A DNA stretch of 64,000 bases from Candidatus Poribacteria bacterium (lineage in GTDB: Bacteria > Poribacteria > WGA-4E > WGA-3G), in contig JAJECK010000096.1 of assembly GCA_022822085.1 (NCBI GenBank), positions 21,934 through 85,933 on the forward strand, in the 5' to 3' direction. Positions 28,526 to 32,392 of this stretch are shown piece after piece (the first letter of the stretch is position 1; each line of letters opens with the position of its first letter). The position numbers were made by a program, and so were the translations under genes. The notes under the pieces were generated by a model, which saw only the letters and a program-made list of their open reading frames with translations, did not search any database and was not told the origin of the DNA.

Positions 28526-28553
28526 TACATGACAAGAAGATAGGAGATATTTG

Positions 28554-29924
28554 ATGGCAGTTGAACTGAGAATGCTCCAAATGGATCAGACAATGACAAA
28601 GGGTAAAATCGGGAAATGGCTTGTTCAGGAAGGGGATACCGTGACTGAGGGACAACCTTTGTTAGAAATCGAAACGGATAAAGTGGTGCATGAACAAGAA
28701 TCGCCCGCAGACGGTATTATTGCACAAATACTGCCAGAAGAGGGAACTGATGTCCCTGTCAACGCCTTGTTAGCCATAATTGCTGCACCGGGTGAAGAGG
28801 TAGAGCGCGTTGAGGCAGGGACAATGGATATACCACAGCAGTTAGAGGAATCAAAGCAGTCTACTACAAAACCTTCAACACCATCAAAAACGCAACCAAA
28901 ACCTACTCCCGTATCGTCAGCTATAAAAGCATCTCCTGCTGCAAAAGAACTTGCTGATAAACTCTCCATTGACTTAACACAAGTCAAGGCATCGGGTCCT
29001 GGGGGACGCGTTCTTGAAAGCGATGTCCATCGTTATGTTGAAACGAGAGAACCCACCCCAACTGAATCCACAAGATTGAAAGCCTCGCCACTTGCGCGCC
29101 GATTAGCGAAGGAATTTGGTCTTGATTTGACATCCATTGCAGGTTCCGGTCCTGACGGTAGAATTGTCCGGGATGACGTAATGCAGTCAGTTGATGAAAT
29201 ACCTGCGCATGTATTCCGTTCTGAATCTGAGCCAGTTGCGTCAGAAGTCATTGAACTCAGTGGCATACGGAAAATCATCGCTGAACGAATGACAATGAGC
29301 CTTCAAACCAATGCAAGTGTGACACTTCATACCGAGGTTGATGGGACAACTCTTGTGAAATTACGTAATCAATTCAACGAAGCACTACAGAAAATAGAGA
29401 AAACCCTTACCTACACAGATCTACTTGTGAAGATAGTTGCTATAGCCTTGTGTGAACATACACGTCTCAATGCGACACTTACAGATGAAGGTATTCAGTT
29501 ATTAACGGATATAAACATCGGGGTTGCTGTTGCGTTGGAAGATGGACTGGTCGTCCCTGTTGTTCGCAATGCGGATAAGATAGGTTTGTCAGATATCTCA
29601 GAACAGATAAAAATGTTAGCAGAAAAAGCACGGGACAACCAACTCACTCCCGGTGAACTACAAGGAGGAACTTTTACAATTACGAATCTTGGAAACTATG
29701 GCATTGATGCGTTTACGCCTATTATAAATCCTCCAGAGACCGGCATCCTCGGTGTAGGAAGGATCATAAAGAAACCGGTTGTCCACAACGATGAAATCGT
29801 TATCCGCAACATGCTTTCCTTAAGTCTAACATTTGATCACCGTGTTGTAGATGGTGCCCCTGCTGCCCAATTCCTACAAACCGTGTCACAATATATTCAG
29901 AACCCATATTTAATGCTTTTATAA
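28554..29924 (+). CDS. 2-oxoacid dehydrogenase E2 (dihydrolipoamide acyltransferase)
   Basis: Lipoyl domain IETDKV, two E3-binding domains (ASP.A..LA...GSGP.GR), catalytic FDHRVVDGA. Confidence 0.95.
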   Translation: MAVELRMLQMDQTMTKGKIGKWLVQEGDTVTEGQPLLEIETDKVVHEQESPADGIIAQILPEEGTDVPVNALLAIIAAPGEEVERVEAGTMDIPQQLEESKQSTTKPSTPSKTQPKPTPVSSAIKASPAAKELADKLSIDLTQVKASGPGGRVLESDVHRYVETREPTPTESTRLKASPLARRLAKEFGLDLTSIAGSGPDGRIVRDDVMQSVDEIPAHVFRSESEPVASEVIELSGIRKIIAERMTMSLQTNASVTLHTEVDGTTLVKLRNQFNEALQKIEKTLTYTDLLVKIVAIALCEHTRLNATLTDEGIQLLTDINIGVAVALEDGLVVPVVRNADKIGLSDISEQIKMLAEKARDNQLTPGELQGGTFTITNLGNYGIDAFTPIINPPETGILGVGRIIKKPVVHNDEIVIRNMLSLSLTFDHRVVDGAPAAQFLQTVSQYIQNPYLMLL

Positions 29925-29935
29925 GGACAATTTGA

Positions 29936-30562
29936 ATGAAACAATTTCTCTATCTACTTCTTATTATATGCCTATTATCAGACGTGTCTGCACAAGAAGT
30001 TGATTTTGACAGTAGACTTGCATCAGACGTTAACGCTGATGGTGTAATAAACATCCTTGATTTGACTTTCGTTGCAGGACATTTTGATGAAATGCCAGAT
30101 GATGATCTATCACCCAATCCAGATATAAACGGTGACGGAATAGTCAACATTCTTGACCTTACACTGATCGCCAGTCATTTCGGGAAGTATTCTGGGATAC
30201 CGCTCATTTTGTCTGATAAGACTTTTAAAAAAGAGATTAGCAATGCAAAACTTCCAGTCTTAGTTGATTTTAAATCCGATACCTGAATTTACTGTATCTT
30301 GATGAAACCGGTGGTTTCTGGAATTGCATTAGAATATCGTGATGTTTTCGCAGTGGCAAAATTAGATGTGAACGAAAATTCTGTAATAACAGCAGAATAC
30401 GGTATCCGTGGAACACCGACATACATCCTATTCTATAAAGGCAAAGTAGTTACCACAATGCTCGGTGCAATGCCGAAAGATAGATTGGTAGAACGAATTC
30501 TTGCTGGATTAATGTCGGTGGTAGAACCACCACTCACACAGGAGCAAACCGACAGCGAATAA
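29936..30562 (+). CDS. Secreted dockerin-domain thioredoxin selenoprotein (Sec at TGA 30284-30286, UxxC)
   Basis: Two in-frame ORFs joined by TGA: LVDFKSDT-U-IYC-ILMKPVV sits at the thioredoxin WCGPC site; YGIRGTPT cis-Pro; SECIS-like hairpin GAAACC-GGT-GGTTTC at 30304-30318. Confidence 0.85.
30304..30318 (+). promoter_or_regulatory. Putative bacterial SECIS apical stem-loop
   Basis: 6-bp stem with a G-starting loop 24 nt after the in-frame UGA. Confidence 0.65.
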
Positions 30563-32392
30563 AACTGACCAATGCCATACCTCTTGCTTGAATGATTGAA
30601 GTTGTCCCTCAGATTCGTTTCCCGCATCCGGGTCCTTTGATTCTGTTGTAGTAGGTGTCAGTGCAGATTCGTCAGCATCAACTAAGTTGACTGCAAACCT
30701 GTCAAAGACTGTATCTCCAACGAAAACAGTATAAACTCCGATTTGATCAGTTTCCGATAAAATATCATCTGCCAATTTAACTAAGGTGTTATCTGGTTTT
30801 TTCACTTGGACAATAGGTTCATCATTATGTTGAATATCAATTTTCAACAACTCACCTGTTCGGAAAAGTTGGTTAGAGGAATTGGTCTGTTCTGTAAGTG
30901 GTTTAATCGGATAGGTATTTGACTCAAACCATTGTAAGCACTGATATATCAATAGCGGTGTATCTGGAATGGTAGTAGCAAACGGAGATACCTCAGGATT
31001 AAATGCATCAAATTCCAGAACCAAAATACGTCTCCCTGATTCCGTACCAAGCCAAATTAGTGTCCCCTTCTCCGTTTCTAAGAGTGAAGTTCCCCAGATA
31101 GGGAGTTCCCTTTTAGCAGATTCTTTGACACCCATCCCAATCAGAGACACGTCTTGCATGAGCGGATGCGTCTTGTTCTCACTGATAACATTGACTGGAC
31201 TGCTGACCATTTCAACGGGAGCATCCGCCAAACTCAATAGTTCAGAGTGCCAGTCTATAAAGATATAGTTATTTACCTGATGCAGCAAACTATGTTCTAA
31301 AGGTATAGCTCCATCAATAATAATGACATCAGCATCACCAGAAGCGTGAAACTCATCTGTAGTTACCCTTTGTAGTTGAACGTTGTCGGCATAATTTCGC
31401 AGAAGATTAATCAGAAATGGTTGCTCTCTATCACTAACAAGAAGGAAATTGAACTGCTTTTTGACATTCAAGATTGCCCACGTTTTATTGTCCAATTCAA
31501 AGTCGTCATCCACATCCACTAAATGCAGACCGATAACCTCACCATCTAACCTATTGGCATTGACTGAAAAGTGGACAGATTTCACATCTCCAGAGGGAAT
31601 AGAAACAGTTTTTTCATCAATAGACCTACCACCTCCTAATTCCAATCGAGCGTCTATAACTCTTGTCGTGTCTGTCCAATTCTGAATGCTGGCAAGCACA
31701 TTGTATTGTTCTGAAATCTTCTCTACATTGAAACTGACTATGCCAATATTATCTGTATTGCTACCTACAATAATTTTGGTAATGGGCACAGATATATCGG
31801 GTATATTATCAAACGAATCGCTAATGAACACGATCTTATCTTGAGGAGAATCCACATAACGAACCGCATGATCAAAGACAGATGTGGACCTGCTACCAAT
31901 ATCTGTTGCTTTTATGTTTTCCACCGCCTGAATCAGTTTATCTTGATCTGTCGTCCAAGTTTGTTCAATATATGGTTTGGGAGAATGTGTTGTCATTATC
32001 ATCATTCCACCACTGACGGATACCAGTTTTATCTGTTTCTTGGCTTCCTGTTTAGCAAGTGTCAATCGAGTCTTCCCTGTTTCTTTTGATTGCATGCTTG
32101 CTGAATTGTCAATAATATATATGATTTTTCCATCAATGATACCGGGGACACGCAACGCAGGACGCGCCACACTGACAACTATTAGGAGTAGAAAAATAGT
32201 TTGGAGTAAAGGAAGTAGTAGATTACGGAGGCGTTGAAATGGCACATTTGCTTTCTGATCTTCAGCACTCTCACGCCAAAGCATGATGCTGGACACAACA
32301 AAACGTTGACGACGTAGTTTCAGAAAATGCAGTGCGATCACAATAGGAATAGCACATAACAGATAGAACGCAGCTGGATTCAAAAATGCCAT
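30509..32392 (-). CDS. BatA/vWA domain membrane-anchored protein
   Basis: MAFLNP...IPIVIALHFLK BatA N-terminus, ARP, IDNSASM MIDAS motif, C-terminal TM ending CEWWFYHR. Confidence 0.88.
   Translation of the reverse strand: MAFLNPAAFYLLCAIPIVIALHFLKLRRQRFVVSSIMLWRESAEDQKANVPFQRLRNLLLPLLQTIFLLLIVVSVARPALRVPGIIDGKIIYIIDNSASMQSKETGKTRLTLAKQEAKKQIKLVSVSGGMMIMTTHSPKPYIEQTWTTDQDKLIQAVENIKATDIGSRSTSVFDHAVRYVDSPQDKIVFISDSFDNIPDISVPITKIIVGSNTDNIGIVSFNVEKISEQYNVLASIQNWTDTTRVIDARLELGGGRSIDEKTVSIPSGDVKSVHFSVNANRLDGEVIGLHLVDVDDDFELDNKTWAILNVKKQFNFLLVSDREQPFLINLLRNYADNVQLQRVTTDEFHASGDADVIIIDGAIPLEHSLLHQVNNYIFIDWHSELLSLADAPVEMVSSPVNVISENKTHPLMQDVSLIGMGVKESAKRELPIWGTSLLETEKGTLIWLGTESGRRILVLEFDAFNPEVSPFATTIPDTPLLIYQCLQWFESNTYPIKPLTEQTNSSNQLFRTGELLKIDIQHNDEPIVQVKKPDNTLVKLADDILSETDQIGVYTVFVGDTVFDRFAVNLVDADESALTPTTTESKDPDAGNESEGQLQSFKQEVWHWSVLFAVGLLLCEWWFYHRH

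Follow-up and report, generated by a model that had tools for sequence, protein, structure and literature searches.

A predicted exported, dockerin-bearing selenocysteine thioredoxin encoded by a split-annotated gene of Poribacteria

To our knowledge, thioredoxins that carry selenocysteine (Sec, U) have been known as plain proteins of the cytoplasmic type, and assemblies of cohesins and dockerins have been known mainly for carbohydrate-active enzymes. The gene described here, at positions 29936-30562 of a 64,000-nucleotide stretch of DNA from Candidatus Poribacteria bacterium (the window, i.e., the whole stretch that was analysed), joins these two fields, which had previously not met. Poribacteria are an uncultured, sponge-associated phylum, and public annotation splits the gene in about 100 of their species, so that both the selenoproteome of the phylum and its exported redox capacity are under-counted. 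We consider it highly probable that 29936-30562 is a genuine, mis-annotated single selenoprotein gene whose in-frame UGA is decoded as Sec by the organism's own machinery. From the N-terminus on, its product would carry a signal peptide, then a type I dockerin, and finally a classical thioredoxin fold in which Sec is the attacking residue.

According to the main text of a 2026 review of prokaryotic selenoproteins, a Sec-thioredoxin (PF00085, UxxC) is among the experimentally verified members (PMC13188914). As far as that text describes it, the Poribacteria protein resembles it in its thioredoxin fold, in the position of Sec as first residue of CxxC, in the combination of an in-frame UGA with a downstream hairpin and in having Cys orthologues, but it differs by its signal peptide, its N-terminal dockerin and the motif T-U-I-Y-C instead of W-C-G-P-C. 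Compared with cytoplasmic TrxA (E. coli 2trx; ancestral 2yn1), it shows 36-40% identity in structural alignment with template modelling (TM) scores of 0.85-0.91, whereas it is predicted to be exported, dockerin-fused and Sec-containing and has another dipeptide between the two redox residues. The main text of the same review also describes exported thioredoxin-fold selenoproteins predicted from metagenomes, namely PF13098 thiol:disulfide interchange, Prx-like, TlpA-type and DsbA-like proteins (PMC13188914). With these, as presented there, the Poribacteria protein shares a UxxC motif in a thioredoxin fold with a role, here predicted, outside the cytoplasm, yet unlike those members of the TlpA/Redoxin/DsbA branches its domain is of the TrxA type, and its predicted anchor is a dockerin rather than a lipid or a membrane helix. 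On the side of the dockerin, it is similar to non-cellulosomal type I dockerins (PF00404) in its two F-hand-like Ca-binding repeats and in the presence of cohesins in the same genome. In contrast to usual dockerin proteins, the cargo is a redox selenoenzyme and not a carbohydrate-active one, and the dockerin stands at the N-terminus, immediately behind the signal peptide. Dockerin, Poribacteria, signal peptide and periplasm do not occur in the main text of PMC13188914, and no description of a dockerin-thioredoxin selenoprotein was found in the full-text literature, whose coverage leaves out most subscription journals. The kind of enzyme is known; the predicted exported, dockerin-tagged architecture is new and conserved in about 100 Poribacteria species.

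Under translation table 11 the gene appears as two open reading frames (ORFs), 29936-30286 (116 aa, ATG) and 30299-30562 (87 aa, TTG start), which lie in the same frame. Reading TGA as U over 29936-30562 yields a 208-residue product with one recoded codon only, U117, and the 208 codons contain no second stop and no frameshift. The following features belong to the gene.

29923..29927, + strand: Shine-Dalgarno-like AAGGA, 8 nt 5' of the ATG, read from the sequence
29936..30562, + strand: selenoprotein coding sequence, 208 codons followed by a TAA stop, listed as two ORFs under table 11
29936..29992, + strand: probable Sec-type signal peptide, residues 1-19, cleavage after V-S-A, judged by eye
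30023..30175, + strand: type I dockerin (Dockerin_1, Pfam PF00404) with two Ca-binding repeats (D-x-N-x-D-G...D), residues 30-80
30206..30499, + strand: thioredoxin domain (Pfam PF00085), residues 91-188
30284..30286, + strand: UGA codon read as Sec (U117), at the nucleophilic first Cys position of CxxC
30284..30295, + strand: redox motif U-I-Y-C, TGA then ATT TAC TGT

The residues around U117 read VLVDFKSDT-U-IY-C-ILMKPVV. The AAGGA motif shares bases with the TAA stop codon of the E2 acyltransferase gene that precedes it. The predicted signal peptide consists, by eye, of MK, a hydrophobic stretch and then VSA/QE around the presumed cleavage site; the orthologues retain the hydrophobic stretch, the small-x-small pattern and Q/E at the N-terminus, and the structure model places a helix of low confidence at residues 3-17. 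Anchoring as a lipoprotein was rejected, as Cys12 lacks a lipobox and is not conserved. A first-pass annotation of this DNA had joined the two ORFs into one 208-aa product, placed the TGA exactly at the first Cys of the thioredoxin motif and recognised two dockerin-type Ca-binding repeats. The translation with TGA as U bears out the single product, the alignment to the WCGPC of solved thioredoxins agrees with the position of the TGA, and both repeats are present, with a Pfam Dockerin_1 match.

A single recoded gene is supported by its homologues. A protein search, for which the read-through product was used with C replacing U, gave 647 matches among 908 candidates. Among the best 120 of these 647 matches, 28 span the full length (171-221 aa) and have both domains, while the other 92 measure 115-138 aa and hold the dockerin only, which, judged by protein length, is consistent with gene calls that end at the stop codon. 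All 28 full-length homologues carry Cys at columns 117 and 120, and those of 194-221 aa match the 208-residue product from end to end; C120 is invariant in the homologue alignment. The few named relatives among the best 120 matches are Candidatus Poribacteria, and of the 72 loci drawn from the genome collection all except one bear this name too. When 176 genomes of the phylum were searched in six frames, with stops inside the matches counted, 106 matches at E <= 2.4e-50 were obtained, which are confined to three genera within a single family; by hand count, 94 contain a TGA, 10 have no stop and 2 have only a TAA. For the Cys-form loci G093, G099, G073, G156 and G065-G067, the no-stop status is taken from the table of this search. 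The sister genus has a match in 62 of 65 genomes, with a TGA in 61 of 63 matches.

The codon column itself was located in the DNA of 30 loci per genus in two genera. It holds TGA in 28 and TGT in two loci of the window's genus, and TGA in 29 and TGC in one locus of the sister genus. The same in-frame TGA is thus found at the U117 column in 57 of 60 orthologous loci, far above chance, and the homologues include both kinds that the first-pass annotation had suggested looking for, those with Cys and those with a conserved TGA at this site. In all 57 Sec forms the TGA is preceded by S-G-I-P at a distance of 31 codons and followed by R-G-T-P 41 codons further on, and the protein sequence 3' of it is highly conserved and uninterrupted in all fetched loci. 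Ratios of non-synonymous to synonymous substitution (dN/dS) were estimated according to Nei and Gojobori for the 57 Sec forms, dropping identical segments, undefined values and dS >= 3. The 60 codons after the TGA give 0.146 (mean dN 0.19, dS 1.30; 1064 of 1596 pairs kept) versus 0.164 for the 31 codons before it (1090 pairs kept), indicating equal purifying selection on the protein on both sides of the TGA. Contigs of three other sequencing runs, 90-95% identical, span 30284-30318, and no difference falls there among 40 of the 61 differences listed.

Repeated exchange of Sec and Cys is the pattern shown by selenoprotein families. It also emerges here from 89 proteins, 58 in the Sec and 31 in the Cys form, whose quick, unrooted maximum-likelihood tree was calculated with the Sec/Cys column masked and after exclusion of nine duplicate loci and the truncated P0044. 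At least seven changes of the Sec/Cys state are required on this tree, well-supported branches forcing at least three of them, and Cys forms are nested within Sec clades, such as L177 beside L151. Such exchanges within one orthologue group offer natural matched pairs for studying the benefit of Sec to an exported thioredoxin.

Both domains score above their gathering thresholds. The dockerin matches PF00404 with an E-value of 6.2e-12 and 46 bits against a cut-off of 22.9, and its residues D31, N33, D35, G36, D42, D63, N65, D67 and D74 are invariant in the homologue alignment. The match to PF00085 (E 8.9e-20; 71.1 bits vs 23.5) extends over residues 91-188, so the thioredoxin domain spans the TGA. 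Over its full length, the stretch of residues 92-188 can be aligned with residues 6-102 of solved thioredoxins of 106-108 aa (E 1e-19); U117 aligns with the first Cys of W-C-G-P-C, and the buried Asp (V-D-F) and the cis-Pro (T-P-T) are retained. An AlphaFold2 model, built from a 29-row alignment with U as C, has a mean predicted local distance difference test (pLDDT) of 80 and shows a helical dockerin followed by the thioredoxin order beta-alpha-beta-alpha-beta-alpha-beta-beta-alpha. Foldseek superposes it on thioredoxins with target-normalised TM scores of 0.85-0.91 and root-mean-square deviations of 1.4-1.7 A, the best being 2yn1_A (TM 0.91, 1.4 A). The TrxA equivalogs TIGR01068 and NF006898 are missed (71.9 vs a cut-off of 96.8 bits and 68.8 vs 138 bits, respectively). 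Since the protein scores below these cut-offs, has the T-U-I-Y-C motif and coexists with a separate, ordinary TrxA of 111 aa in the genome, it is distinct from the housekeeping TrxA. In the NCBIfam scan, the 208-aa protein is not claimed by any curated selenoprotein family model. Other thioredoxin-fold families fit less well: PF13098 matches more weakly than PF00085 (E 2e-10), DSBA stays below its cut-off in the Pfam scan (E 0.081), Redoxin and AhpC-TSA have no match in that scan, and TlpA-type models are absent from the NCBIfam matches.

The machinery for Sec decoding, proposed as a check in the first-pass annotation, is complete in the same genome. Contig C110, on which the window lies, belongs to a 5.63-Mb assembly that is 96.5% complete and encodes selA (611.5 bits), selB (354.4 bits), selD (366.6 bits) and a tRNA-Sec (78.1 bits vs a gathering score of 47) that directly adjoins selB on contig C94; all four are above their curated cut-offs. 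The selD gene (G000:C140:29818-30744, minus strand, in the window's own genome) carries one in-frame TGA itself, within K-C-A-G-U, which we take to be the usual Sec/Cys site of SelD, and a 4-bp hairpin with loop CGGGU lies 16 nt past this UGA. Elsewhere TGA serves as stop, closing five of the 28 open frames of at least 300 codons in the window, which shows that the genetic code is otherwise standard.

For the selenocysteine insertion sequence (SECIS), two structures come into consideration.

30304..30318, + strand: candidate SECIS core, 6-bp hairpin GAAACC-GGT-GGTTTC with a GGU loop
30299..30332, + strand: possible outer stem enclosing the hairpin, 30299-30304 with 30327-30332, in the 62-nt minimum-energy fold

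The stem of the hairpin starts 17 nt and its loop 23 nt past the UGA. Its presence agrees with the first-pass annotation, while the distance of 24 nt given there applies to the first base of the loop and not to the stem, which begins at 17 nt. Across the 28 Sec forms of the window's genus, RNAalifold recovers this hairpin as the sole consensus, with five of its six pairs (columns 21-25/31-35). Within the 6-bp structure 91% of the cells are paired, compared to 22-68% after a shift of the 3' partners by 1-3 columns, and only 7 of 500 column shuffles match the observed pairing or covariation. Pair 23-33 covaries (AU 12, GC 5, CG 2, GU 1, GG 8); in one of the compensatory changes, Lys-to-Arg or Lys-to-Ala is coupled with a synonymous change in the second Val codon. 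Conservation of the hairpin holds within the genus, with one compensatory pair. The hairpin is absent from all four Cys-form genes with DNA, and the mean 30-nt folding energy is -6.4 kcal/mol for 58 Sec forms versus -3.3 kcal/mol for these four Cys forms. In Cys forms P-V-V-S has become P-I-V-T, P-I-V-A or P-T-V-A, and 25-nt folds reach -1.9, -1.2 and 0 kcal/mol in Cys forms against -5.0 to -10.7 kcal/mol in seven Sec forms and -4.3 kcal/mol in an eighth.

The bacterial SECIS model, as given in the main text of the review, specifies a loop of 3-9 nt, an upper stem of 4-16 bp with G in the first two loop positions, a distance of 16-37 nt from the UGA and an energy of <= -7.5 kcal/mol (PMC13188914). 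The fit claimed in the first-pass annotation stands for three of these four constraints as summarised there (3-nt GGU loop, 6 bp, 23 nt) and fails for the energy (-5.5 kcal/mol). The 62-nt minimum-energy fold, with loop UGGUUU, a 4-bp upper stem, a distance of 25 nt and -11.9 kcal/mol, agrees with all four constraints in that description, but its energy is not unusual among shuffled sequences. Its outer stem is also present in the consensus structure of the sister genus, which comprises an outer stem at columns 16-21/44-49 and small inner pairs, with no covariation. In the window's genus the outer stem likewise shows no covariation, mismatches are tolerated and the third-position column 45 varies freely. 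A single SECIS structure common to both genera was rejected, as the alifold consensus differs between them. The SECIS core is probably a small hairpin with a G-rich loop 22-27 nt past the UGA, as in the organism's own selD; its exact form is not established.

Several observations weigh against the reading of the locus as an exported selenoprotein gene, most of them concerning the hairpin. At -5.5 kcal/mol, the hairpin at 30304-30318 is equalled by 12 of 200 shuffled sequences. Pair 23-33 is the sole covarying pair, and 8 of the 28 sequences have G-G there. The 62-nt fold has another inner stem and a z-score of -0.98, with 31 of 200 shuffles as good, and 30-nt windows reach <= -7.5 kcal/mol in only 16 of 58 Sec forms. 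The contrast in hairpins between Sec and Cys forms is drawn from only four Cys-form genes with DNA. In the sister genus the best local fold mostly has the loops UGU, GUCA or GGUC, and because loops and consensus folds differ across genera we claim no single defined SECIS structure. At the level of expression, no RNA run was found with window positions 29700-30700, the contigs of four runs showing only the DNA, with its TGA, in other samples. The gene does not stand in an operon with any redox partner, its neighbours being E2 and BatA/VWA genes. Finally, we infer secretion and docking on an extracellular scaffold, the docking being predicted from the dockerin and cohesin matches.

We propose the following mechanism. 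SelA, SelB, SelD and tRNA-Sec would decode the UGA at 30284-30286 as Sec, probably directed by the small G-loop hairpin about 20 nt past it. The protein would be exported by the Sec pathway, and its dockerin, together with Ca2+, may bind one of the cohesin modules of the genome, fixing the enzyme in the envelope or on the surface. There, the U117 selenolate could attack a substrate disulfide or an oxidised Cys/Met repair partner, after which C120 would resolve the selenenylsulfide. Recycling may occur through a membrane electron conduit, for example the single DsbD-type protein of the genome (one DsbD_TM gene). In the reductive direction, Sec would be the faster nucleophile and would resist over-oxidation in an oxidising compartment. 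A dockerin-anchored selenoenzyme suggests that redox chemistry is placed deliberately, in the envelope or at the cell surface.

It is unlikely, but deserves most attention among the alternatives, that the same gene, decoded in the same way, encodes an oxidase or isomerase, forming or shuffling the disulfides of the many exported cohesin/dockerin, WD40 and leucine-rich repeat (LRR) proteins. The dipeptide I-Y between the redox residues (P-Y, F-Y or P-F in relatives) is indeed unlike the reducing G-P of thioredoxin, and the genome exports many large repeat proteins. However, the domain is closest to the reducing TrxA type and keeps the buried Asp of V-D-F and the cis-Pro of T-P-T, there is no significant DsbA match (E 0.081), and a DsbD-type electron importer is present, points that favour a reductase without being decisive.

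The remaining alternatives concern the decoding itself. Readthrough of the UGA as Cys, Trp or Gly by near-cognate or alternative decoding is very improbable. Computation cannot tell which residue is inserted and the SECIS candidate is weak, but the full Sec machinery is present, selD itself has a canonical Sec-TGA, TGA serves as stop elsewhere in the window, and the recoded column is that of the catalytic Cys, with the repeated exchange of TGA and TGY that is the signature of Sec/Cys pairs. Equally slight is the chance of two products, a dockerin-only protein of 116 aa ending at the UGA and an 87-aa protein starting from TTG at 30299. Both ORFs exist under table 11, and UGA termination under selenium scarcity would yield the 116-aa form. 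Nevertheless, the thioredoxin domain (residues 91-188) crosses the TGA, the 87-aa piece would be missing the active site together with strand 1 and the beginning of helix 1, the Cys-form orthologues are uninterrupted, and the TTG lies inside the hairpin region with no evident ribosome-binding site; as the fold needs both sides of the TGA, the two-protein reading does not fit. A pseudogene created by nonsense mutation or assembly error is barely conceivable, for although gene callers stop at the TGA and 92 truncated proteins occur among the 120 best of 647 database matches, the TGA occupies the same column in 57 of 60 loci of different species, the downstream dN/dS (0.146) is as low as the upstream one, the 208 codons hold no second stop or frameshift, and the contigs of the three other runs that cover the site show no difference there among 40 of the 61 listed.

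Returning to an exported Sec-thioredoxin of the reducing type, the genome offers possible docking partners. The cohesin-domain proteins that the first-pass annotation had proposed to search for are represented by 26 cohesin matches, accompanied by 45 other dockerin-like matches; the frames around 17 of the 19 further dockerin loci that were fetched were scanned. The dockerin bearers of the window's own genome include the following.

L050:1441-3174 and L051:1426-3207, + strand, contigs C31 and C25: DppA-like dockerin proteins
L055-L068, including L056 and L062, contigs C116, C122, C124, C64, C79, C82, C90, C25 and C110: WD40/LRR loci

The two DppA-like proteins are ABC-transporter solute-binding proteins that have, like the selenoprotein, a signal peptide followed by an N-terminal dockerin, and their dockerins are the closest to that of the selenoprotein (54% identity). 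The anchoring of periplasmic binding proteins by a dockerin is, as far as we know, unusual. Most of the other dockerin loci among the 17 scanned encode large WD40 or LRR (internalin-like) proteins, in which the repeats are followed, wherever further domains are listed, by a cohesin, a dockerin and an immunoglobulin (Ig)-like domain at the C-terminus. The C-terminal domain of L056 and L062, both of those tested, matches the type A sorting domain of the type IX secretion system (T9SS; TIGR04183) with 27.7-28.7 bits against a cut-off of 23. The domain arrangement of these WD40/LRR proteins suggests a self-linking surface network of eukaryote-like repeat proteins. No carbohydrate-active enzyme was found among the 17 scanned dockerin loci. 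As to the place of docking, a periplasmic site is favoured by the binding proteins, which have the same dockerin, and a surface site by the cohesin proteins sorted through the T9SS.

A further redox-type cargo attached to a dockerin was observed at L054:154-1767 (minus strand; contig C104 of the same genome), where a dockerin is combined with the C-terminal domain of a copper type II ascorbate-dependent monooxygenase (E 4.2e-07).

The sister genus contributes a further Sec-thioredoxin candidate. Directly 3' of the orthologue in genome G132, the one locus inspected, a second gene (L149:2163-3578, + strand) encodes 471 aa, comprising a signal peptide and a dockerin, then repeated beta-rich segments and, at the C-terminus, a thioredoxin domain with W-U-P-S-C at an in-frame TGA. 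Similar paralogue matches (residues ~70-192, one TGA, frames of 388-628 aa) occur in several sister-genus genomes, and the window's own genome has no such paralogue.

Taken together, one may tentatively picture the Poribacteria envelope as carrying a non-cellulosomal cohesin-dockerin assembly, in which unrelated exported cargoes, including the Sec-thioredoxin, the DppA-like proteins and the second, Ig-stalked Sec-thioredoxin of the sister genus, are plugged onto cohesin-bearing, T9SS-sorted WD40/LRR surface proteins, a possibility to which we give well under even chances. If true, the Sec-thioredoxin would be the first known case of a selenoenzyme placed by a dockerin, and the complex would gain a built-in, oxidation-resistant disulfide reductase at the host-symbiont interface. 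Selenium shortage would then lead to UGA termination and set free a stub with the dockerin only, in competition for the same cohesin sites.

The neighbourhood of the gene in the window comprises genes for a GFO/IDH/MocA oxidoreductase and a 2-oxoacid dehydrogenase E2, together with a convergent BatA/VWA gene.

28551-29924: 2-oxoacid dehydrogenase E2 ORF, ending 11 nt 5' of the selenoprotein gene
30509-32392, minus strand: convergent BatA/VWA gene, overlapping the selenoprotein 3' end by 54 nt (30509-30562) if the listed stop is real

All 30 loci of the window's genus keep the order of E2, selenoprotein gene and convergent BatA/VWA. Of the 30 sister-genus loci, none has E2 next to the gene and 16 have BatA there. 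Because the order is kept within the genus and not in the sister genus, we read it as inherited synteny and not as an operon, and a functional link to the neighbours was rejected.

A few loci of the six-frame search depart from the common arrangement. In G104 the dockerin and thioredoxin parts lie about 1.3 kb apart (C1:2148100-2148360 and 2149621-2150037), with two TGA in the second match; this split orthologue may reflect an insertion or rearrangement. Genome G079 has one copy without and one with a TGA (C18 and C195), and G122 has two TGA copies (C7 and C165). In addition, a set of sister-genus matches to the thioredoxin domain (residues ~85-196; 39-45% identity; frames of 400-495 aa), for example G158:C130:47616-47948, G149:C1:2315361-2315693 and G126:C278:11781-12110, each contain one in-frame TAG, which may simply be the end of the gene inside the read-through frame.

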